64,000 nucleotides of DNA from Escherichia coli (GTDB lineage: Bacteria > Pseudomonadota > Gammaproteobacteria > Enterobacterales > Enterobacteriaceae): the NCBI RefSeq assembly GCF_044647545.1, contig NZ_CP172818.1; one strand, written 5' to 3'. Below are positions 6,566 through 62,100 of this stretch, piece after piece; position 1 is the first letter of the stretch, and the number at the start of each line of letters is the position of its first letter. Both the position numbers and the translations under genes were made by a program. A model generated the notes under the pieces. It was not told the origin of the DNA. It ran no database searches and saw only the letters and a program-made list of their open reading frames with translations.

Positions 6566-9175
6566 ATGAAAATACCCACTACTACGGATATTCCGCAGAG
6601 GTATACCTGGTGTCTGGCCGGAATTTGTTATTCATCTCTTGCCATTTTACCCTCCTTTTTAAGCTATGCGGAAAGTTATTTCAACCCGGCATTTTTATTA
6701 GAGAATGGCACATCCGTTGCTGATTTATCGCACTTTGAGAGAGGTAATCATCAACCTGCGGGCGTGTATCGGGTGGATCTCTGGCGTAATGATGAGTTCA
6801 TTGGTTCACAGGATATCGTATTTGAATCGACGACAGTAAATACAGGTGATAAATCAGGTGGGTTAATGCCTTGTTTTAACCAGGCACTCCTTGAACGAAT
6901 TGGCCTTAATAGCAGTGCATTCCCCGAGTTAGCCCAGCAGCAAAATAATAAATGCATCAATTTACTGAAAGCTGTACCTGATGCCACAATTAACTTTGAT
7001 TTTGCAGCGATGCGCCTGAACATCACTATTCCTCAGATAGCGTTGTTGAGTAGCGCTCACGGTTATATTCCGCCTGAAGAGTGGGATGAAGGTATTCCTG
7101 CTTTACTCCTGAATTATAATTTCACCGGTAACAGAGGTAATGGTAACGATAGCTATTTTTTTAGTGAACTCAGCGGGATTAATATTGGCCCGTGGCGTTT
7201 ACGCAACAATGGTTCCTGGAATTATTTTCGCGGAAATGGATATCATTCAGAACAGTGGAATAATATTGGCACCTGGGTACAGCGCGCCATTATTCCGCTG
7301 AAAAGTGAACTGGTAATGGGAGACGGTAATACAGGGAGTGATATTTTCGATGGCGTTGGATTTCGAGGTGTACGGCTTTATTCTTCCGATAATATGTATC
7401 CTGATAGCCAGCAGGGATTTGCTCCAACGGTACGTGGGATTGCCCGTACGGCGGCCCAGCTAACGATTCGGCAAAATGGTTTTATTATCTATCAAAGCTA
7501 TGTTTCCCCCGGCGCTTTTGAAATTACAGATTTGCACCCGACATCTTCAAATGGCGATCTGGACGTCACCATCGACGAGCGTGATGGTAATCAGCAGAAT
7601 TACACGATTCCGTATTCAACAGTGCCAATTTTACAACGCGAAGGGCGTTTCAAATTTGACCTGACGGCGGGCGATTTTCGTAGCGGTAATAGTCAGCAAT
7701 CGTCGCCTTTCTTTTTTCAGGGCACGGCACTCGGCGGTTTACCACAGGAATTTACTGCCTACGGCGGGACGCAATTATCTGCAAATTACACCGCCTTTTT
7801 GTTAGGGCTGGGGCGCAACCTCGGGAACTGGGGCGCAGTGTCGCTGGATGTAACGCATGCGCGCAGTCAGTTAGCCGACGACAGTCGTCATGAGGGGGAT
7901 TCCATTCGCTTCCTCTATGCGAAATCAATGAACACTTTCGGCACCAATTTTCAGTTAATGGGTTACCGCTATTCGACACAAGGTTTTTATACTCTTGATG
8001 ATGTTGCGTATCGTCGAATGGAGGGGTACGAATATGATTACGATTATGACGGTGAGCATCGCGATGAACCGATAATCGTGAATTACCACAATTTACGCTT
8101 TAGTCGTAAAGACCGTTTGCAGTTAAATATTTCACAATCACTTAATGACTTTGGCTCGCTTTATATTTCTGGTACCCATCAAAAATACTGGAATACTTCG
8201 GATTCAGATACCTGGTATCAGGTGGGGTATACCAGCAGCTGGGTTGGCATCAGTTATTCACTCTCATTTTCGTGGAATGAATCTGTAGGGATCCCCGATA
8301 ACGAACGTATTGTCGGACTTAATGTTTCAGTGCCTTTCAATGTTCTGACCAAACGTCGCTACACCCGGGAAAATGCGCTCGACCGCGCTTATGCCTCCTT
8401 TAACGCCAACCGTAACAGCAACGGGCAAAATAGCTGGCTGGCAGGCGTTGGTGGGACCTTACTGGAAGGCCACAACCTGAGTTATCACGTAAGCCAGGGC
8501 GATACCTCGAATAATGGGTATACGGGCAGCGCCACGGCAAACTGGCAGGCCGCTTACGGTACGCTGGGGGTCGGGTATAACTACGACCGCGATCAACATG
8601 ACGTTAACTGGCAGCTGTCTGGCGGTGTGGTCGGGCATGAAAATGGTATAACGCTGAGCCAGCCTTTAGGGGATACCAATGTTTTGATTAAAGCGCCAGG
8701 CGCAGGCGGTGTACGCATTGAAAATCAAACTGGAATTTTAACCGACTGGCGCGGCTATGCGGTGATGCCGTATGCCACGGTTTATCGGTATAACCGTATC
8801 GCGCTTGATACCAATACGATGGGGAATTCCATCGATGTTGAAAAAAATATTAGCAGCGTTGTGCCGACGCAAGGCGCGTTGGTTCGTGCCAATTTTGATA
8901 CCCGCATAGGCGTGCGGGCGCTCATTACCGTTACCCAGGGCGGAAAACCGGTGCCGTTTGGATCACTGGTACGGGAAAACAGTACCGGAATAACCAGTAT
9001 GGTGGGTGATGACGGGCAAGTTTATTTAAGCGGTGCGCCATTGTCTGGTGAATTACTGGTTCAGTGGGGAGACGGCGCGAACTCACGCTGCATAGCGCAC
9101 TATGTATTGCCGAAGCAAAGCTTACAGCAAGCCGTCACTGTTATTTCGGCAGTTTGCACACATCCTGGCTCATAA
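6566..9175 (+). CDS. sfmD: outer-membrane fimbrial usher SfmD
   Basis: 869-aa ORF; usher family size and operon position. Confidence 0.9.
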
Positions 9176-21458: not shown

Positions 21459-22653
<1,195 letters not shown>

Positions 22654-23683
22654 TTAGTGAAGTCATTTTTGTCAAGCAGGTTGATTTTGTAATCAACGAA
22701 AGTAGACATATTTTTGTTGAAGTAATAGGTTGCACCTACATCAACATATTTGACTAAGTCCTGATCGCCCCATACTCCAAGATCCTTACCTTTAGATTGC
22801 AGGTAAGCAACGGACGGACGCAGACCGAAATCGAACTGATATTGTGCAACAGCTTCGAAGTTTTGGGCTTTATTAGCAACGAAGTGATCAGCAAATACAG
22901 TCATATTCTGGGTTTCAGAATAGGTAGTGGCCAGGTAAATGTTGTTAGCGTCATATTTCAGACCTGCGGCCCAAACTTCTGCATTTTTACCGGAAGCAAA
23001 TACTTCAGGAAGAACTTTCCCTGCATTAACTTGAGTGTCGGTACGATCAGATTTCGCATAAGTTGCACCGATACCGAATCCTTCGTATTCATAGGTAGCA
23101 GAGAAACCGAAGCCATCACCGTTACCTTCAGTGTAGTTATCGAAATCGCTACGATCGTTTTTGCCTTGGTACTGAATCGCAAAATCAAGACCATCAACCA
23201 GGCCAAGAAATCATAGTTACGGTAGGTTGCAACACCGTTGGTACGACCATTCATGAAGTTGTCAGCGGAAGCCCAGGAATCGCCACCCCATTCAACTAAC
23301 ATATCGGTATAAGCTGCGGCATCATAAGCAACACCGTAGTTACGGCCATAGTCAAATGACCACTCGTTATATTTCAAACCGGCGAAGGTTAAACGGGTTT
23401 TTTCCTGGTTTTCACCTTCGGGCTTGCTGGCGTCGAGGTTGTATTCAAACTGACCAAAACCAGTCAGTTCGCTGGTGATTTGGGTTTCACCTTTGAAGCC
23501 AAGACGGGCATAAGTAGTATCACCATCATCTGCATCATTAGAGGAGAAGTAGTGCTTAGCATTAACTTTCCCGTACAGATCCAGCTTGTTACTGTCTTTA
23601 TTATAAATTTCAGCTGCCTGAGCAGACATCGCCATTAGTACTGATGCAGCTACAGCAGAAATTGCCACTGTTAATTTTTTCAT
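22654..23683 (-). pseudogene. nmpC: OmpC-family outer-membrane porin, truncated at the 3' end by IS5 and carrying an internal single-base frame break near 23205
   Basis: Signal peptide [23 protein letters not shown]; porin sequence reads YRNYDF then shifts frame, then continues in frame to the IS5 junction (last residues EGANKSLI come from IS5). Confidence 0.8.
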
Positions 23684-24258
23684 CGTGAGCCCTTTTTTTG
23701 AACTATTATTAAAAAATGATGTCACTGCGCGATAAATATTCATCTAATCAATGTGATTATTTCAAGATGTAAGTTTTGGTTTCTCGTTTGATTTGTGAAG
23801 TAGATCTCTATTTTTATCTGAACTTTTTTCTATCGAATCCTATTCATGGCTCTTGGCTGAATAAAAATAAATCTATTAGCCAATTTATATTAACGGCTGT
23901 TATTTATAAGTGCTCTATAATTTGAAGGTTCAATTTAAACCGGCTAAAAATAACACTGGAAATTATTTTTTGGTTATTTGTTGAGATTTGCTTATGTATT
24001 TGTAGTGGTGTTTTCAATACTCGGTAGCATTCTCTCAAATATCATTTAGTGGTTTACGTACGTAAAAAATTGGTTATGCTGTTAAGAGTGGTTACTTCGT
24101 CACACAGCTTAAACCCGCCGTCGAGCGGGTTTTTCCATTTTTTGAGTCTCGATATTAGCTGATAACCCAATACCTGAGTTATTCACTGACTCCGAGTCTG
24201 TTACGTTTCGTAGTATTCCCTCAATTTACACCCATCCGTTATTTGCGGAGGTGAGGCT

Positions 24259-24474
24259 ATGAAATCCATGGATAAGTTAACAACGGGCATTGCCTACGGC
24301 ACCTCCGCAGGCAGTGCTGGCTACTGGTTTTTACAGCTGCTCGATAAAGTCACGCCCTCACAGTGGGCAGCAATAGGTGTGCTGGGTAGCTTGGTATTTG
24401 GCCTGCTGACGTACCTGACAAACCTTTATTTCAAGATTAAAGAAGATAAGCGCAAGGCTGCGAGAGGTGAATAA
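24259..24474 (+). CDS. essD: phage holin (71 aa)
   Basis: Two hydrophobic segments and charged C-terminus; first gene of the lysis cassette. Confidence 0.85.
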
Positions 24475-24971
24475 TGCCTCCATCATTACGAAAAGCCGTT
24501 GCTGCTGCTATTGGTGGCGGAGCAATTGCTATAGCATCAGTGTTAATCACTGGCCCAAGTGGTAACGATGGTCTGGAAGGTGTCAGCTACATACCATACA
24601 AAGATATCGTTGGCGTATGGACTGTATGTCACGGGCATACAGGAAAAGACATCATTCCCGGTAAAACGTATACCGAAGCAGAATGCAAAGCCCTCCTGAA
24701 TAAAGACCTTGCCACGGTAGCCAGACAAATTAACCCGTACATCAAAGTCGATATACCGGAAACAACGCGCGGCGCTCTTTACTCGTTCGTCTATAACGTG
24801 GGCGCAGGCAATTTCAGAACATCTACTCTTCTTCGCAAAATAAACCAGGGCGATATCAAGGGCGCATGTGACCAGCTACGTCGCTGGGCATACGCTGGCG
24901 GTAAGCAATGGAAAGGCCTGATGACTCGTCGTGAGATTGAGCGTGAGGTCTGTTTGTGGGGGCAACAATGA
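24474..24971 (+). CDS. rrrD: phage endolysin (lysozyme family)
   Basis: 165-aa ORF overlapping holin stop; N-terminal signal-anchor-like segment. Confidence 0.85.
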
Positions 24972-25342
24972 GCAGAGTCACCGCGATTATCTCCGCTCTG
25001 GTTATCTGCATCATCGTCTGCCTGTCATGGGCTGTTAATCATTACCGTGATAACGCCATCGCCTACAAAGAACAGCGCGATAAAAAAGTCAGTGAGCTGA
25101 AGCAGGCGACCGCCACCATTACTGACATGCAGCAGCGCCAGCGTGATGCTGATGCACTCGATGCTAAATACACGAAGGAGTTAGCTGATGCGAAAGCTGA
25201 AAATGATGCTCTTCGGCGCAAGCTTGATAATGGTGGTCGGGTGCTCGTCAAAGGAAAATGCCCTGTGCCATCCTCAGCCGAAACCTCCAGCGCCTCCGGC
25301 ATGGGCAATGATGCCACCGTCGAACTCAAAGACCGAGAATAA
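24968..25342 (+). CDS. rzpD: Rz-like inner-membrane spanin subunit (reading frame as it stands in this sequence)
   Basis: N-terminal transmembrane segment [21 protein letters not shown], coiled-coil-like region; frame terminates at 25342 while the following Rz-like C-terminal peptide lies in the +1 frame. Confidence 0.6.
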
Positions 25343-25445
25343 AAACTATCCAGTTAGCGACGAATATCTGGACCCAATTATCGCGACCAAAACAGCACTG
25401 AGAACGCTTCAGGAATTCATCAGGACGCAATGTCCTTCGAGATAG
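25188..25445 (+). CDS. rzoD: Rz1-like outer-membrane lipoprotein spanin subunit, +1 frame inside and extending beyond the Rz frame
   Basis: [12 protein letters not shown] lipobox, proline-rich PKPPAPPAW; true C-terminus uncertain. Confidence 0.45.
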
Positions 25446-25602
25446 CGATTATTTTACTCATCATTCCCTTCACATCTGGCTCTGTAGACAGTTCACTTCT
25501 GAAATCCAATAAACATCTCATTCTGATGCTTGATATTGAGCATTTTGCGCGCGGTAAGGGGCTGCGTTGAGATAAGAACCAGTAAAAATAAACCAGGATT
25601 TA

Positions 25603-25625
25603 GCCTCGCATTCGCGGGGCTTTTT
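25603..25625 (+). terminator. candidate rho-independent terminator of the lysis operon
   Basis: GCCTCGC ATTC GCGGGGC hairpin (7-bp stem with one G-U pair) followed by TTTTT. Confidence 0.5.
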
Positions 25626-25709
25626 ATTGCCATTACAAAAGCCACTTCCTACAGAGTGGCTTTGATAATGGTTTATACCCTACACGGGATAACTTAACTG
25701 ATATCCCTT

Positions 25710-25874
25710 TTAAAGGATAAAGGTATTCAAGCCTGACACATCATGCGCTGTATCGTCGCCGTATTCCCGTATTAACAGAGACCGTAGCCCGACGGGGAAC
25801 TCCTTCTGCGCGAGTGTGCGGGAATAATCAAAAACGATGCACACCGGGGTTACCGGGTACACATATTTCATCAT
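25710..25874 (-). CDS. hypothetical small ORF (54 aa)
   Basis: ORF MMKYVYPVTPVCIVFDYSRTLAQKEFPVGL...; no recognisable family; below ORF-track cutoff. Confidence 0.2.
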   Translation of the reverse strand: MMKYVYPVTPVCIVFDYSRTLAQKEFPVGLRSLLIREYGDDTAHDVSGLNTFIL

Positions 25875-25919
25875 GCCAGCGAGTCCGGTTCTGGCACGGA
25901 AGAAACCGGACGTTATGAT

Positions 25920-26330
25920 TTAGTGCGGAAATATTTGTGTAGTGTTCTGAATGTTCTCAGTAAAGAGTAATGAATTATCAAAGGTATAGTAATACCTTTT
26001 GTTTTCGTGGATATTTGTAATCCATCTGAAAACCCCTGCTGTAGCAAGATTTTTCCTGTATTCGTAAAATGATAACTCTCCTGATTTGAATCCTTTTAAG
26101 GTGGCTTCTATAAGGCATTTATTTTTTGAAAATCTTACATTTACAACCTTACCCTGTCCTTTTATTAAAACCGTATTATCGTTTTCAAGAACAAGATGAA
26201 TATTCTCTGTAGCTAAATAGTAAATGTAATGTGAGACATTGTGACGTTTTAGTTCAGAATAAAACCAGTGATAGTTTAAATTATTTCGCACTTTATCGAA
26301 TATTTGTTTAAAAATGGCAACCTGAGCCAT
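25920..26330 (-). CDS. ybcV: prophage protein YbcV (DUF1398-like)
   Basis: 136 aa from [31 protein letters not shown]. Confidence 0.75.
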
Positions 26331-26662
26331 TGTGGTACCTTCCATGTGATATGAGGGGCGTAGTCTGCACGATTATCTAAATTGCTTCAATCTGGTCTGA
26401 TTTTTGAGAATTTAAATAAGCAGATTAGAAGGGAAACGCTGAAATTCATGTTGTTTTCAATAAACAAAGAATGGACGAAAAATCATAAAGACAATACTGC
26501 CAGGACAGGTTAAAAACTATCTTAATACACATTCGATGGTTAGATGTTTAATCATGTATAGAACATCATACCTAAAATACTAAAAGCAAAAGAAACGAAG
26601 GAATCCTCTATAATTAATCTATCAAAGAAGAGAATACGTATCTGACTAAGAGACTAATCAAC

Positions 26663-26896
26663 TCAGCAATCCTCGTATTTAGGGAATACAATACGTCCAG
26701 TGTCACTCTTTTCTTTGTTTGCTTCAGGAGAAACTCTTTTTTCTGAGCACAGTCTCCGGCGGCAGGCTTCAATGACCCAGGCTGAGAAATTCCCGGACCC
26801 TTTTTGATCAAGAGCGATGTTAATTTGTTCAATCATTTGGTTAGGAAAGCGGATGTTGCGGATTGTTGTTCTGCGGGTTCTGTTCTTCGTTGACAT
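26663..26896 (-). CDS. ylcI: small DNA-binding-like prophage protein (YlcI/DUF3950-like)
   Basis: 77-aa ORF MSTKNRTRRTTIRNIRFPNQMIEQINIALDQKGSGNFSAWVIEACRRRL; start codon uncertain. Confidence 0.5.
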   Translation of the reverse strand: MSTKNRTRRTTIRNIRFPNQMIEQINIALDQKGSGNFSAWVIEACRRRLCSEKRVSPEANKEKSDTGRIVFPKYEDC

Positions 26897-27095
26897 GAGG
26901 TTGTCCCGTATTTAGTGTCGCTGATTTGTATTGTCTGAAGTTGTTTTTACGTTAAGTTGATGCAGATCAATTAATATGATACCTGCGTCATAATTGATTA
27001 TTTGACGTGGTTTGATGGCGTAGATGCACGTTGTGACATGCAGATGATAATTATTATCATTTTGCGGGTCCTTTCCGGCGATCCGACAGGTTACG

Positions 27096-27107
27096 GGGCG
27101 GCGACCT
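27096..27107 (+). other. lambda-type cosN cohesive-end sequence GGGCGGCGACCT
   Basis: Exact lambda cohesive-end 12-mer preceded by GATCCGACAGGTTACG; CGTTTCC/GGAAACG repeats (terminase small-subunit binding elements) lie between it and nohD. Confidence 0.8.
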
Positions 27108-27284
27108 CGCGGGTTTTCGCTATTTATGAAAAATTTCCGGTTTAAGGCGTTTCCGTTCTTCTTCGTCATAACTTAATGTTTTTATTTAAAATACCCTCTG
27201 AAAAGAAAGGAAACGACAGGTGCTGAAAGCGAGCTTTTTGGCCTCTGTCGTTTCCTTTCTCTGTTTTTGTCCGTGGAATGAACA

Positions 27285-27830
27285 ATGGAAGTCAACAAAA
27301 AGCAGCTGGCTGACATTTTCGGTGCGAGTATCCGTACCATTCAGAACTGGCAGGAACAGGGAATGCCCGTTCTGCGAGGCGGTGGCAAGGGTAATGAGGT
27401 GCTTTATGACTCTGCCGCCGTCATAAAATGGTATGCCGAAAGGGATGCTGAAATTGAGAACGAAAAGCTGCGCCGGGAGGTTGAAGAACTGCGGCAGGCC
27501 AGCGAGGCAGATCTCCAGCCAGGAACTATTGAGTACGAACGCCATCGACTTACGCGTGCGCAGGCCGACGCACAGGAACTGAAGAATGCCAGAGACTCCG
27601 CTGAAGTGGTGGAAACCGCATTCTGTACTTTCGTGTTGTCGCGGATCGCAGGTGAAATTGCCAGTATTCTCGACGGGCTCCCCCTGTCGGTGCAGCGGCG
27701 TTTTCCGGAACTGGAAAACCGACATGTTGATTTCCTGAAACGGGATATTATCAAAGCCATGAACAAAGCAGCCGCGCTGGATGAACTGATACCGGGGTTG
27801 CTGAGTGAATATATCGAACAGTCAGGTTAA
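27285..27830 (+). CDS. nohD: terminase small subunit (lambda Nu1 homologue)
   Basis: 181-aa [49 protein letters not shown]...; recognised Nu1 sequence. Confidence 0.9.
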
Positions 27831-28548
27831 CAGGCTGCGGCATTTTGTCCGCGCCGGGCTTCGCTCACTGTTCAGGCCGGAGCCACAGACCGCCGTTGAA
27901 TGGGCGGATGCTAATTACTATCTCCCGAAAGAATCCGCATACCAGGAAGGGCGCTGGGAAACACTGCCCTTTCAGCGGGCCATCATGAATGCGATGGGCA
28001 GCGACTACATCCGTGAGGTGAATGTGGTGAAGTCTGCCCGTGTCGGTTATTCCAAAATGCTGCTGGGTGTTTATGCCTACTTTATAGAGCATAAGCAGCG
28101 CAACACCCTTATTCCAGCTGGCTTCGTGGCTGTTTTCAACAGTGATGAGTCATCGTGGCATCTCGTTGAAGATCATCGGGGTAAAACGGTTTATGACGTA
28201 GCGTCAGGGGACGCGTTATTTATTTCTGAACTCGGTCCGTTACCGGAAAATGTTACCTGGTTATCGCCGGAAGGGGAGTTTCAGAAGTGGAACGGTACAG
28301 CCTGGGTGAAAGATGCAGAAGCAGAAAAACTGTTCCGGATTCGGGAGGCGGAAGAAACAAAAAACAGCCTGATGCAGGTAGCCAGTGAGCATATTGCGCC
28401 ACTTCAGGATGCTGTAGATCTGGAAATCGCAACGGAGGAAGAAACCTCATTGCTGGAAGCCTGGAAAAAATATCGGGTGTTGCTGAACCGTGTTGATACA
28501 TCAACTGCACCTGATATTGAGTGGCCTACGAACCCTGTCAGGGAGTAA
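27805..28548 (+). pseudogene. tfaD: fusion of terminase large-subunit N-terminal fragment to a tail-fibre assembly C-terminal fragment
   Basis: N-terminal ~100 aa match lambda gpA start ([28 protein letters not shown]...), C-terminal part matches Tfa (...[28 protein letters not shown]...). Confidence 0.75.
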
Positions 28549-45036: not shown

Positions 45037-48000
45037 ATGATTGAATGGATTATTCGTCGCTCGGTGGCGAACCGTTTTCTGGTGCTGATGGGCGCGTTGT
45101 TTCTGAGCATCTGGGGCACCTGGACCATCATTAACACGCCAGTGGATGCGCTGCCGGATCTCTCTGATGTACAGGTGATTATTAAAACCAGCTATCCCGG
45201 TCAGGCACCGCAAATCGTTGAAAATCAGGTGACTTATCCGCTAACCACCACCATGTTGTCGGTACCTGGCGCGAAGACAGTGCGCGGTTTCTCGCAGTTT
45301 GGCGACTCTTATGTGTATGTCATTTTTGAAGATGGCACCGATCCGTACTGGGCGCGCTCGCGGGTGCTGGAGTACCTCAATCAGGTACAGGGGAAGCTGC
45401 CTGCGGGAGTCAGCGCCGAGCTGGGGCCAGACGCCACGGGCGTTGGCTGGATCTATGAATATGCACTGGTAGATCGCAGCGGTAAGCACGATCTGGCCGA
45501 TTTACGCTCATTGCAGGACTGGTTTCTCAAATATGAGCTAAAAACCATCCCTGACGTTGCGGAAGTGGCGTCGGTGGGCGGTGTGGTGAAAGAGTATCAG
45601 GTGGTTATCGATCCTCAGCGCCTGGCGCAGTATGGCATCAGTCTCGCCGAAGTAAAAAGCGCGCTGGATGCTTCAAACCAGGAAGCGGGCGGTTCGTCGA
45701 TCGAACTGGCGGAAGCGGAATATATGGTGCGCGCCAGCGGATATCTGCAAACGCTCGACGACTTTAATCACATCGTTTTAAAAGCCAGTGAAAATGGCGT
45801 GCCCGTTTATCTGCGTGATGTTGCGAAGGTCCAGGTTGGCCCGGAGATGCGCCGGGGCATTACCGAACTGAACGGCGAAGGCGAAGTGGCGGGCGGGGTG
45901 GTGATCCTGCGTTCCGGCAAAAACGCCCGTGAAGTGATCGCTGCCGTGAAGGACAAACTGGAAACGCTGAAAAGCAGTCTGCCGGAAGGCGTGGAGATAG
46001 TTACAACATACGATCGCAGCCAGCTCATTGACCGCGCCATTGACAACCTCAGTGGCAAGTTGCTGGAAGAGTTTATTGTGGTGGCGGTAGTCTGTGCGCT
46101 GTTTCTCTGGCATGTGCGCTCGGCGCTGGTGGCGATTATTTCGTTGCCGCTGGGGTTGTGTATTGCTTTTATTGTCATGCACTTTCAGGGACTGAACGCC
46201 AATATTATGTCGCTGGGCGGTATTGCGATTGCCGTCGGGGCGATGGTCGATGCCGCTATCGTCATGATCGAGAATGCGCATAAACGGCTGGAAGAGTGGC
46301 AGCACCAGCATCCTGACGCCACGCTGGATAATAAAACGCGCTGGCAGGTGATTACCGATGCATCTGTTGAAGTGGGGCCGGCGCTGTTTATCAGTCTGCT
46401 GATTATCACGCTGTCGTTTATCCCGATCTTCACCCTGGAAGGGCAGGAAGGTCGTCTGTTTGGCCCGCTGGCGTTCACCAAAACCTATGCGATGGCGGGC
46501 GCGGCGCTACTGGCGATCGTAGTGATCCCGATCCTGATGGGCTACTGGATCCGTGGCAAAATTCCGCCGGAAAGCAGTAACCCGCTCAATCGCTTTTTGA
46601 TTCGTGTTTATCATCCGCTGTTGCTGAAAGTACTGCACTGGCCGAAAACCACGCTGTTGGTGGCAGCGCTTTCGGTGCTGACGGTACTCTGGCCGCTCAA
46701 TAAAGTTGGCGGGGAATTTTTACCGCAGATCAATGAAGGCGACTTGTTGTATATGCCATCGACGCTGCCGGGGATTTCCGCAGCAGAGGCGGCGAGCATG
46801 CTGCAAAAAACCGACAAGCTGATTATGAGCGTACCGGAAGTGGCGCGGGTATTTGGCAAAACCGGGAAAGCGGAAACCGCCACCGATTCAGCTCCACTGG
46901 AGATGGTAGAAACGACTATCCAGCTTAAGCCACAAGATCAGTGGCGGCCAGGCATGACGATGGACAAAATCATTGAGGAACTGGATAACACCGTGCGTCT
47001 GCCGGGGCTGGCGAATCTGTGGGTGCCGCCAATTCGTAACCGTATCGATATGCTCTCGACTGGCATTAAAAGCCCTATCGGCATTAAAGTTTCCGGCACT
47101 GTGCTGGCGGATATCGACACGATGGCGGAGCAAATTGAAGAAGTGGCGCGAACGGTGCCAGGCGTAGCTTCTGCTCTTGCCGAGCGGCTGGAAGGTGGGC
47201 GCTATATCAACGTTGAGATTAACCGTGAAAAAGCCGCGCGTTACGGTATGACGGTGGCGGATGTGCAATTGTTTGTGAAATCTGCGGTGGGCGGGGCGAT
47301 GGTTGGCGAAACGGTGGAAGGGATTGCCCGTTATCCAATTAATCTGCGTTATCCGCAAAGCTGGCGCGATAGCCCGCAGGCACTGCGCCAGTTGCCGATC
47401 CTCACGCCGATGAAGCAGCAAATCACCCTGGCAGACGTGGCCGACGTTAAAGTCTCTACCGGACCGTCGATGCTGAAAACCGAGAATGCGCGCCCGACGA
47501 GCTGGATTTATATCGATGCCCGCGATCGTGACATGGTGTCGGTGGTTCACGATCTGCAAAAAGCGATAGCTGAAAAAGTGCAGTTAAAACCGGGCACCAG
47601 CGTGGCATTCTCCGGGCAGTTCGAGCTACTGGAGCGCGCCAACCATAAGCTGAAACTGATGGTGCCGATGACGCTGATGATCATCTTCGTGCTGTTGTAC
47701 CTGGCGTTCCGTCGGGTGGGCGAAGCGTTGCTGATTATCAGCAGCGTACCGTTTGCGCTGGTGGGCGGCATCTGGTTGCTGTGGTGGATGGGCTTTCATC
47801 TTTCCGTGGCGACGGGCACCGGTTTTATTGCCCTTGCCGGGGTCGCCGCCGAATTTGGCGTGGTGATGCTGATGTATTTACGTCACGCCATAGAGGCCGA
47901 GCCGTCGTTGAATAATCCGCAAACATTCAGCGAGCAGAAGCTGGATGAGGCGTTGTATCACGGCGCGGTCCTGCGCGTGCGCCCGAAAGCGATGACGGTG

Positions 48001-59120: not shown

Positions 59121-62100
59121 GCCAGCATTTACCTTTGGTCGCCGCACAGCCCGGCATCTGGATGGCAGAAAAACTGTCGGATTTACCCTCCGCCTGGAGC
59201 GTGGCGCATTACGTTGAGTTAACCGGAGAGGTTGATGCGCCATTACTGGCCCGCGCGGTGGTTGCCGGATTAGCGCAAGCAGATACGCTGCGGATGCGTT
59301 TTACGGAAGATAACGGCGAAGTCTGGCAATGGGTCGATGATGCGCTGACGTTCGAACTGCCAGAAATTATCGACCTGCGAACCAACATTGATCCGCACGG
59401 TACTGCGCAGGCATTAATGCAGGCGGATTTGCAACAAGATCTGCGCGTCGATAGCGGTAAACCACTGGTCTTTCATCAGTTGATACAGGTGGCGGATAAC
59501 CGCTGGTACTGGTATCAGCGTTATCACCATTTGCTGGTCGATGGGTTTAGTTTCCCGGCCATTACCCGCCAGATCGCCAACATTTACTGCGCATGGCTGC
59601 GTGGCGAACCTACGCCTGCTTCGCCGTTTACGCCTTTCGCTGATGTAGTGGAAGAGTACCAGCAATACCGCGAAAGCGAAGCCTGGCAGCGTGATGCGGC
59701 ATTCTGGGCGGAACAGCGTCGTCAATTGCCGCCGCCCGCGTCACTTTCTCCGGCACCTTTACCGGGGCGCAGCGCCTCGGCAGATATTCTGCGCCTGAAA
59801 CTGGAATTTACCGACGGGGAATTCCGCCAGTTGGCTACGCAACTTTCAGGTGTGCAGCGTACCGATTTAGCCCTTGCGTTGGCAGCCTTGTGGCTGGGGC
59901 GATTGTGCAACCGCATGGACTACGCTGCCGGATTTATCTTTATGCGTCGACTGGGCTCGGCGGCGCTGACGGCTACCGGACCCGTGCTCAACGTTTTGCC
60001 GTTGGGTATTCATATTGCGGCGCAAGAAACGCTGCCGGAACTGGCAACCCGACTGGCGGCTCAACTGAAAAAAATGCGTCGCCATCAACGTTACGATGCC
60101 GAACAAATTGTCCGTGACAGCGGGCGAGCGGCAGGTGATGAACCGCTGTTTGGTCCGGTACTCAATATCAAGGTATTTGATTACCAACTGGATATTCCTG
60201 ATGTTCAGGCGCAAACCCATACCCTGGCTACCGGTCCGGTTAATGACCTTGAGCTGGCCCTGTTCCCGGATGAACACGGTGATTTGAGTATTGAGATCCT
60301 CGCCAATAAACAGCGTTACGATGAGCCAACGTTAATTCAACACGCTGAACGCCTGAAAATGCTGATTGCCCAGTTCGCCGCGGATCCGGCGCTGTTGTGC
60401 GGCGATGTCGATATTATGCTGCCAGGTGAATATGCGCAGCTGGCGCAGATCAACGCCACTCAGGTTGAGATTCCAGAAACCACGCTGAGCGCGCTGGTGG
60501 CAGAACAAGCGGCAAAAACACCGGATGCTCCGGCGCTGGTTGATGCGCGTTACCAGTTCAGCTATCGGGAAATGCGCGAACAGGTGGTGGCGCTGGCGAA
60601 TCTGCTGCGTGAGCGCGGCGTTAAACCAGGCGACAGCGTGGCGGTGGCATTACCGCGCTCGGTCTTTTTGACCCTGGCGCTACATGCGATTGTTGAAGCT
60701 GGTGCGGCCTGGCTACCTCTGGATACCGGCTATCCGGACGATCGCCTGAAAATGATGCTGGAAGATGCGCGTCCATCGCTGTTAATCACCACCGACGATC
60801 AACTGCCGCGCTTTGCCGATGTTCCAGATTTAACCCGCCTTTGCTATAACGCCCCGCTTATACCACAGGGCAGTGCGCCGCTGCAGCTTTCACAACCGCA
60901 CCACACGGCTTATATCATCTTCACCTCCGGTTCCACCGGCAGGCCGAAAGGGGTAATGGTCGGGCAGACGGCTATCGTTAACCGCCTGCTCTGGATGCAA
61001 AACCACTACCCGCTTACAGGCGAAGATGTCGTTGCCCAAAAAACGCCGTGCAGTTTTGATGTCTCGGTGTGGGAGTTTTTCTGGCCGTTTATTGCCGGGG
61101 CTAAACTGGTGATGGCTGAACCGGAAGCGCACCGCGACCCGCTCGCTATGCAGCAATTCTTTGCCGAATATGGTGTAACAACCACGCACTTTGTGCCGTC
61201 GATGCTGGCGGCATTTGTTGCATCGATGACGCCGCAAACCGCTCGTCAGAGTTGCGCGACGTTGAAACAGGTTTTCTGTAGTGGTGAGGCCTTACCGGCT
61301 GATTTATGCCGCGAATGGCAACAGTTAACCGGCGCGCCGTTGCATAATCTGTATGGCCCGACGGAAGCAGCGGTAGATGTCAGCTGGTATCCGGCCTTTG
61401 GCGAGGAACTGGCACAGGTACGCGGCAGCAGTGTGCCGATTGGTTATCCGGTGTGGAATACGGGCCTGCGCATTCTCGATGCGATGATGCATCCGGTGCC
61501 GCCGGGTGTGGCGGGAGATCTCTATCTCACCGGTATTCAACTGGCGCAGGGGTATCTTGGACGACCCGATCTGACAGCCAGCCGCTTTATTGCCGATCCT
61601 TTTGCGCCAGGTGAACGCATGTACCGTACCGGAGATGTTGCCCGCTGGCTGGATAACGGCGCGGTGGAGTATCTCGGGCGTAGTGATGATCAGCTAAAAA
61701 TTCGCGGGCAGCGTATCGAACTGGGCGAAATTGATCGCGTGATGCAGGCGCTGCCGGATGTCGAACAAGCCGTTACCCACGCCTGTGTGATTAACCAGGC
61801 GGCAGCCACTGGTGGTGATGCGCGTCAGTTGGTGGGCTATCTGGTGTCGCAATCAGGTCTGCCGTTGGATACCAGCGCATTACAGGCGCAGCTTCGTGAA
61901 ACATTGCCACCACATATGGTACCGGTGGTTCTGCTGCAACTTCCACAGTTACCACTTAGCGCCAACGGCAAGCTGGATCGCAAAGCCTTACCGTTGCCTG
62001 AACTGAAGGCACAAGCGCCGGGGCGTGCGCCGAAAGCGGGCAGTGAAACGATTATCGCCGCGGCATTCTCGTCGTTGCTGGGTTGTGACGTGCAGGATGC

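Follow-up and report, generated by a model that had tools for sequence, protein, structure and literature searches.

In phage lambda and in the DLP12 prophage of Escherichia coli K-12, the spanin gene Rz is followed by bor and then by a DUF1398 gene, the latter two on the minus strand. Like the other lambdoid morons, bor (borD in K-12) maps between Rz and cos and is read leftward. It has its own promoter and a conserved reading frame, and encodes a lipoprotein of 97 aa that belongs to a Pfam family. In the reference genomes of lambda and K-12, the spacer between bor and the DUF1398 gene is unannotated and non-coding. In lambda, this spacer contains a block, here called module B, that begins 67 bp past the stop codon of lambdap78 (the DUF1398 gene) and ends 115 bp ahead of the bor ATG. 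In both genomes, ~47 bp separate module B from a PhoP-box-like repeat, beyond which lies bor; the repeat, TGTTTAGGGTTTGTTTA, is located ~53 bp upstream of the bor ATG, between module B and the gene. Minagawa and coworkers are said to have reported in 2003 that borD (then named vboR) is activated by PhoP.

A second system that bears on this region is that of the boundary sequences of lambdoid phages, which are short non-coding stretches common to phages with differing flanking genes. Conserved sequences of this kind reportedly mark the junctions between lambdoid modules, as Juhala and colleagues (in 2000) and Clark and colleagues (in 2001) are said to have described. Experiments have shown that lambda recombines efficiently with this very region of DLP12, in a homology-driven manner (PMC3945230).

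Here, we analyzed a 64,000-nucleotide stretch of an E. coli genome (the window), which holds a DLP12-like cryptic prophage. A first-pass annotation of the window had pointed to a 54-codon ORF on the minus strand, at 25710-25874, as a possible accessory gene in the position where bor would be expected. Our analysis indicates, with a probability of roughly 85%, that this ORF (ORF54) is a chance ORF and not a gene. In the most economical reading, it is a by-product of the joining of short linker pieces after bor was lost or replaced.

A DLP12-like prophage without bor

The ORF exists as described: translation of the minus strand at 25710-25874 gives exactly the 54 residues quoted earlier. To its left lie the lysis genes essD (24259-24474) and rrrD (24474-24971) and the Rz/Rz1 spanin genes (24956-25445, plus strand). 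Rz ends early, at 25342, and its C-terminal coding part goes on in the Rz1 frame (ORF 25188-25445). These genes are followed by a degraded 46-aa copy (25430-25570, plus strand) of a 50-aa "hypothetical protein" (WP_001139678.1; phrog_11822). The 50-aa protein is the product of a putative gene, annotated by PGAP in numerous E. coli prophages, where it overlaps the Rz 3' end. Compared with intact relatives, positions 25326-25600 carry many small indels, because of which both the spanin gene and the small ORF that follows it look degraded.

To the right, a DUF1398 gene of the ybcV/ydfO type (25920-26345, minus strand) was identified by its match to Pfam PF07166 (E 3e-43) and by the PGAP annotation of its relatives. 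This gene, hereafter ybcV, is under purifying selection, with pairwise dN/dS values of 0.2-0.34 against the copies of K-12, lambda, and Qin, and is a real gene located upstream of ORF54 on the same strand. Beyond it are a DUF3950 gene of the ylcI type (26663-26896, minus strand) and nohD (27285-27830). A 247-aa ORF at 27805-28548 (plus strand) resembles a terminase large subunit at its start and a tail fibre assembly protein at its end; it is an aaaD/tfaD-type fusion that results from the large internal deletion typical of DLP12. As in K-12, the nmpC porin gene is interrupted by a copy of IS5 (21605-23743), while the region from the lysis genes to cos differs from that of K-12 in carrying another Rz allele and no bor. 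Over the full length of 24900-26400, the best match among complete RefSeq E. coli genomes is only 95.5% identical.

Neither bor nor the PhoP-box-like repeat is present in the window, so that the absence of bor noted in the first-pass annotation is confirmed for both the gene and its promoter region. The location of ORF54 "where bor would be" was found to be accurate in part. Its last ~11 codons do lie in the segment that replaces bor, but two thirds of it belong to a spacer, found in lambda and K-12 as well, that separates the DUF1398 gene from the bor promoter. The bor-lambdap78 spacer of lambda and the borD-ybcV spacer of K-12 are direct DNA homologues of the ORF core, and the homology runs on through a hairpin into the DUF1398 gene. 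At the other end of module B, where lambda and K-12 have the PhoP-box-like repeat and bor, the window instead has the stump of a Rha gene and a hairpin module. ORF54 does share with bor and the lambdoid morons its leftward orientation and its place in the accessory region between the lysis genes and cos, as had been claimed. Unlike Bor, it has no signal sequence, Shine-Dalgarno sequence, conserved frame, family, or conserved promoter. A comparison with the Bor family and with the general layout of morons revealed no Bor homology and no autonomous unit of promoter, gene, and terminator.

Composite structure of the ORF

BLAST searches of the interval against ~125 related loci revealed homology breakpoints at 25628/9, 25716, 25744/5, 25851, and 25911. 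The breakpoints at 25716, 25744/5, and 25851 lie inside ORF54, and the alignments thereby show the ORF to be of composite origin. The first piece is a hypervariable patch at a mosaic breakpoint (25852-25875), which carries both candidate ATG codons and codons 1-8 (MMKYVYPV). Many loci lose homology at 25851; at the positions of the patch, other loci carry unrelated sequences, which encode N-termini such as MRDKPANHKRGKN or contain no ATG at all. The second piece is module B, a 108-bp non-coding block (25744-25851) that supplies codons 9-44. Codons 45-53 correspond to 25716-25743, antisense to and beside a 21-bp remnant of the 3' end of a Rha-family gene (25716-25736, plus strand; DKGIQA and a stop codon). 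This remnant is identical to the end of WP_000881322.1, which is encoded by an annotated Rha gene in an O157-type prophage (locus L002).

These junctions suggest that the DNA separating the lysis operon from ybcV is made up of short modules that are exchanged by recombination between lambdoid phages. In order, the modules would be a plus-strand terminator, a palindromic hairpin, the Rha stump, module B, the hypervariable patch, and the hairpin that follows ybcV. In this lineage, bor and its promoter would have been replaced, and by accident one frame would have stayed open through the joined pieces, starting at an ATG of the hypervariable patch and closing at a TAA past the Rha stump. The modules themselves may persist as recombination linkers. 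An ORF that arose as an accident across three pieces of non-coding prophage DNA is therefore an ordinary finding, by which one candidate accessory gene can be struck off the list.

Frame conservation and substitution pattern

The principal alternative for the ORF itself is that it represents a real, young, and lineage-restricted small-protein gene, a moron that originated in the window-type lineage of module B, with expression either from a promoter of its own or together with ybcV. Its position is one where lambdoid phages keep accessory genes such as bor, and several small proteins have been validated nearby in Qin. The lambda, K-12, and 933W-type copies carry two 1-nt indels, a deletion and an insertion at a distance of 17 nt, by which the frame is shifted locally. 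In these copies, the window's TCT-CTG-TTA reads ACA-TAG-TTA, which includes an in-frame stop; the lambda copy has one additional 1-nt deletion. Given the in-frame TAG and the 1-nt indels, there is therefore no comparable ORF in lambda or K-12.

A second sample of loci, which was less biased and had been retrieved by a pattern at the edge of module B, contained four independent 1-nt deletions in the ORF frame (L254, L322, L274, and L328), as well as a clade with a 2-nt deletion (L293 and L299) and a 1-nt insertion (L289). Among all 183 loci, an ATG-initiated ORF of at least 40 codons was present in 101, the core was open without such an ORF in 57, and the core was broken in 25; for the loci found by the second pattern only, the core was broken in 20 of 72. 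The 36-codon core is open in 158 of the 183 loci (the window type and its sister types), which counts against a chance ORF and in favor of a young gene. Two in-frame deletions (12 nt in L085 and 9-12 nt in others), which occur alongside the frameshifting ones, likewise count against a chance ORF. On the other side, the predicted homologues of ORF54 have N- and C-termini that are unrelated between loci.

The substitution pattern argues more directly against a protein-coding role. Among the closest relatives, 40 distinct variant alleles were found in 25716-25851, distributed 16:16:8 over the three codon positions, so that the third position is the least variable. Eight of these alleles are synonymous and 32 are non-synonymous, where random mutation of the same sequence would yield 28% synonymous changes. 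In this count, each allele was treated as one event without reference to a tree, and part of the sample had been retrieved by an exact 20-nt pattern inside the ORF. The substitutions fit neutrality (P=0.16), while an omega of 0.5 or less is rejected (P=0.001). The same kind of count for ybcV, used as a control, gave 5:0:8 by codon position, with 9 synonymous to 4 non-synonymous alleles. None of the 40 alleles creates a stop codon in ORF54, where ~2 would be expected; this difference, which would favor a young gene, is not significant.

As judged from these alleles and alignments, the ORF protein is under no purifying selection, and its frame is not conserved in related prophages. The first-pass annotation had proposed a moron gene and had suggested frame conservation and codon substitutions as checks. 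The frame is lost in the lambda, K-12, and 933W types and broken in 25 of the 183 loci, and no third-position or synonymous bias was detected; for these two reasons, the moron gene is not supported. The caveat in the same annotation that the ORF may be non-coding has proven apt, in view of the broken frame in relatives, the neutral substitutions, and a length within reach of chance.

Length, start signals, and annotation

The length of ORF54 is within chance expectation. When the 349-bp gap in which it lies (25571-25919) was subjected to 5000 dinucleotide-preserving shuffles, an ORF of at least 54 codons appeared in 39% of them, and one with an ATG start in 20%. The 64-kb window as a whole contains 246 ORFs of at least 54 codons.

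The sequence 5' of the start reads CCGGACUCGCUGGC-AUG and offers no usable Shine-Dalgarno sequence before the ATG. The sole GGA is 9 nt upstream, beyond the usual spacing, and is paired within the stem at 25883-25911. Upstream of the ORF, the minus strand has no recognizable promoter-like site, and no conserved promoter is evident. An extended -10-like element, TGgCATGAT, can be read from the sequence at ~25872-25880 and would speak for a young gene; however, this putative -10 is not conserved, and transcription from it would begin downstream of the ATG. We infer that ORF54 is untranslated. If the stretch is transcribed, the product would most likely be a 3' UTR of the ylcI-ybcV mRNA that ends at a hairpin at 25630-25671.

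Existing annotation points the same way, with one exception. In the best 40 RefSeq matches, which are 100% identical over 25600-25960, the DUF1398 gene is the only CDS annotated beneath the match. A fully identical copy of 25600-25960 is present in E. coli FDAARGOS_433 (NZ_CP023899, 4572963-4573323). In two further annotated relatives, PGAP shows a gap without a CDS, and in every RefSeq copy inspected it leaves ORF54 unannotated. The protein cluster (90% identity) nearest to the ORF has 24 members from 6 contigs, yet 645 records match the DNA at 99% identity or more. The exception consists of two phage records in which a "hypothetical protein" is placed on the ORF DNA; these annotations, which count against a chance ORF, are probably automatic.

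Searches with the ORF protein agreed with the earlier statement that it belongs to no recognized family. No match was obtained in Pfam, PHROGs, or NCBIfam, and a search of PDB sequences returned two matches only, both with E=0.93. An exhaustive HMMER search of 1.84 billion representative proteins identified as relatives ORFs of 34-126 aa from E. coli and Shigella, which are located over the same DNA. The one further candidate homologue, P0062 (1094 aa, 15 stretches), is a low-complexity repeat protein that matches only "EYGD", and was rejected as spurious. A word-indexed search of 5.8 billion proteins likewise revealed no family, and no signal sequence was found in the ORF protein. In the text-format supplementary files of two catalogues of small ORFs (PMC5597208 and PMC11188072), no peptide string of the ORF occurs, and no record of it was found in the literature, where PMC7067206 is silent on this spacer. 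With a substitution pattern that is at best neutral, the unrelated termini, the broken frames, and the missing start signals and annotation set against the open core and the suggestive position, we consider a young gene at this site very unlikely.

Flanking hairpins and transcript ends

The lysis operon ends at an intrinsic-terminator-like hairpin with a T-run on the plus strand (25602-25631; -14.7 kcal/mol, z -3.3). Back to back with it lies a palindromic hairpin with 17-bp arms, CCATTACAAAAGCCACT and AGTGGCTTTGATAATGG (25630-25671; -21.1 kcal/mol, z -6.1), whose stem is followed on the minus strand by UUUUGUAAUGG. This palindrome is likely the stop for leftward transcription from ylcI and ybcV; because part of the U-run falls within the extended stem, its role as a minus-strand terminator is only probable. 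The linker module to which the palindrome belongs is also found between genes close to the right end of HK97, HK620, Sf101, mEpX1, and a Salmonella phage.

A third hairpin, GTCCGGTT...AACCGGAC (25883-25911), is found just 3' of the ybcV stop codon. In the Qin copy of this hairpin (L250, ~7465-7495), TCCGGTT/AACCGGA is replaced by TCCGGCT/AGCCGGA, with both arms changed. The hairpin persists even at loci that have no DUF1398 gene. Of the three hairpins, that at 25602-25631 and the palindrome are the putative terminators.

The same features could be read as those of a small RNA, either a leftward sRNA or one derived from the 3' UTR of ybcV, ending at the 25630-25671 hairpin. The strong minus-strand hairpin with its UUUUGUAAUGG tail would provide the 3' end, the distance of ~250 nt from the ybcV stop to the hairpin fits such a transcript, and lambdoid prophages are rich in sRNAs (PMC4104026). 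However, the prophage sRNAs of that study lie downstream of PR' and not here, and the Pas sRNAs, described in a 2026 preprint, are prophage sRNAs that are located elsewhere. A search of 23500-27500 against Rfam 15 at E<=1 returned nothing inside 25700-25920; the nearest match, STnc560 at 25503-25691, scored 19.6 bits, below its gathering score of 55. In addition, the hairpin module and module B are joined in some loci only, and a locus with Bor or Rha on the left has no such 3' end. Together with the lack of an evident conserved promoter, this makes an sRNA here extremely improbable, and an untranslated tail of the ylcI-ybcV message, if the DNA is transcribed at all, remains our preferred reading.

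Distribution and possible cis function of module B

Module B is widespread. Its equivalents are found at 46868-46974 in lambda (80.7% identity), at 579009-579116 in K-12 (81.7%), and at 60234-60341 in Stx2 phage I, with an overall identity of 81-83%. Matches to it were obtained from 432 phage records, each with at least 80% identity and 80% coverage; nearly all of these are phages of E. coli or Shigella, and a few records are named Salmonella. Of the 5426 complete E. coli genomes, 3968 match some part of 25600-25960, at up to 7 places per genome. Qin of K-12 is without module B, its homology ending at the hairpin after ydfO. More distant copies were sought with the pattern TTATTCCCG-N40-52-CGGGAATA in 298 Gb of sequence; this loose pattern gave chance matches in unrelated phyla, and both matches from E. 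albertii failed to align to the window.

The block occurs in many gene contexts. When the nearest recognizable gene on each side was recorded for 189 loci, more than 30 left/right combinations were obtained. The left neighbours included the 50-aa hypothetical protein (plus strand), Bor (minus), three types of Rha (plus), and Rz (plus); the right neighbours included DUF1398 (minus), YlcI (minus), a PhiR40-type gene (plus), Nu1 (plus), a 933W-type terminase (plus), and another terminase small subunit (plus). Some copies are chimeric, such as that of L255, the left half of which is of the lambda type and the right half of the POCJ13 type. Non-homologous flanking genes across phages, breakpoints at 25744/5 and 25851, and chimeric copies are the features of a lambdoid boundary or linker sequence, and module B resembles the described boundary sequences in being a short non-coding stretch common to phages with differing flanks. 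While recombination between lambda and DLP12 has been demonstrated experimentally (PMC3945230), the use of module B itself as a crossover site is suggested by its gene contexts. Because this linker occurs in the majority of E. coli genomes and joins many different neighbours, it should serve well as a marker for the exchange of modules at the boundary between lysis and packaging genes, and may also be a substrate of this exchange.

Module B also diverges more slowly than its surroundings. Its divergence from lambda is 19%, gaps included, as compared with a pS of 0.30-0.35 for the adjoining DUF1398 gene (ybcV/lambdap78), which may reflect either mild constraint or homogenization by recombination between prophages. 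The former would fit a reading in which selection acts in cis on module B and the adjoining hairpin (25744-25912, ~170 bp), with ORF54 as a by-product. The element could be a preferred crossover site in the DNA. Alternatively, it could fold within the rightward late transcript, which is antiterminated by Q, and thereby control how the mRNA of the downstream packaging genes is processed, stabilized, or translated. Several observations agree with this. The block sits at the boundary of lysis and packaging genes in many unrelated contexts, and in nearly all phage records listed, it has one orientation, that of the late operon, wherever the record follows the conventional direction. Its divergence is also below the synonymous divergence next door (pS 0.35).

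A further observation concerns an inverted repeat inside module B, TATTCCCG/CGGGAATA (25762-25769 and 25819-25826), the arms of which are also given as TATTCCCGG/CCGGGAATA. On the plus strand, this candidate stem extends to 11 pairs when G-U is included. The stem is kept among the copies, with 98.9% of cells paired. Changes on a single side of the stem yield G-U on the plus strand, where they would yield A-C on the minus strand, and one pair is compensatory: it is U-G in the window, C-G in the sister type, and G-C in lambda (CG 30, UG 14, and GC 6), while the other pairs are essentially invariant.

Against this, the double change is confined to that one pair and to 6 sequences of one clade, and as such represents a single inherited event; 9 of the 19 tested pairs never vary, and the retrieval pattern had itself fixed one of the two arms. 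The folding energies are no better than those of shuffled sequences on either strand (z-scores of -0.7 and +0.5), the alifold energy was -12 kcal/mol (covariation term, -0.5), and no Rfam family matches. By our estimate, a perfect 8-bp repeat arises by chance in about 1 of 8 such segments. With insignificant z-scores and one covarying pair, we therefore claim no RNA structure for module B. Common descent and gene conversion between co-resident prophages, which would in addition slow divergence, explain its conservation equally well, because the identity of the copies never drops below 80% and, apart from a few records named Salmonella, they are confined to phages of the E. coli/Shigella type. 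We thus regard a functional cis element at 25744-25912 as unlikely, though less so than a gene or an sRNA. Were it real, a crossover block of this kind would let phages swap accessory genes (bor, Rha, and small ORFs) and head modules, and the open frames on both of its strands would be side effects.

One such frame on the opposite strand has received a family of its own. The phrog_6954 ORF ("Rz-like spanin", e.g., ORF-84 of Stx2 converting phage I) was, like ORF54, predicted automatically over module B DNA, in 933W-type phages. It differs from ORF54 in being on the plus strand and 81 aa long (2493-2738 in L128, the Stx2 converting phage I locus; corresponding to 25814-25918 in the window), and it has no features of a spanin. 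We rejected it as a true plus-strand gene: both the family and its label look spurious because neither lambda nor POCJ13 nor the window has an uninterrupted frame, and it is probably another accidental ORF with a wrong name. If ORF54 is an accident of the kind proposed here, the automatic labels "hypothetical protein", "Rz-like spanin", and "arginyl-tRNA synthetase" would all be explained as different accidental frames over one conserved linker. The last of these names is carried in the databases by the predicted homologues P0033, P0034, and P0057, as a propagating annotation error.
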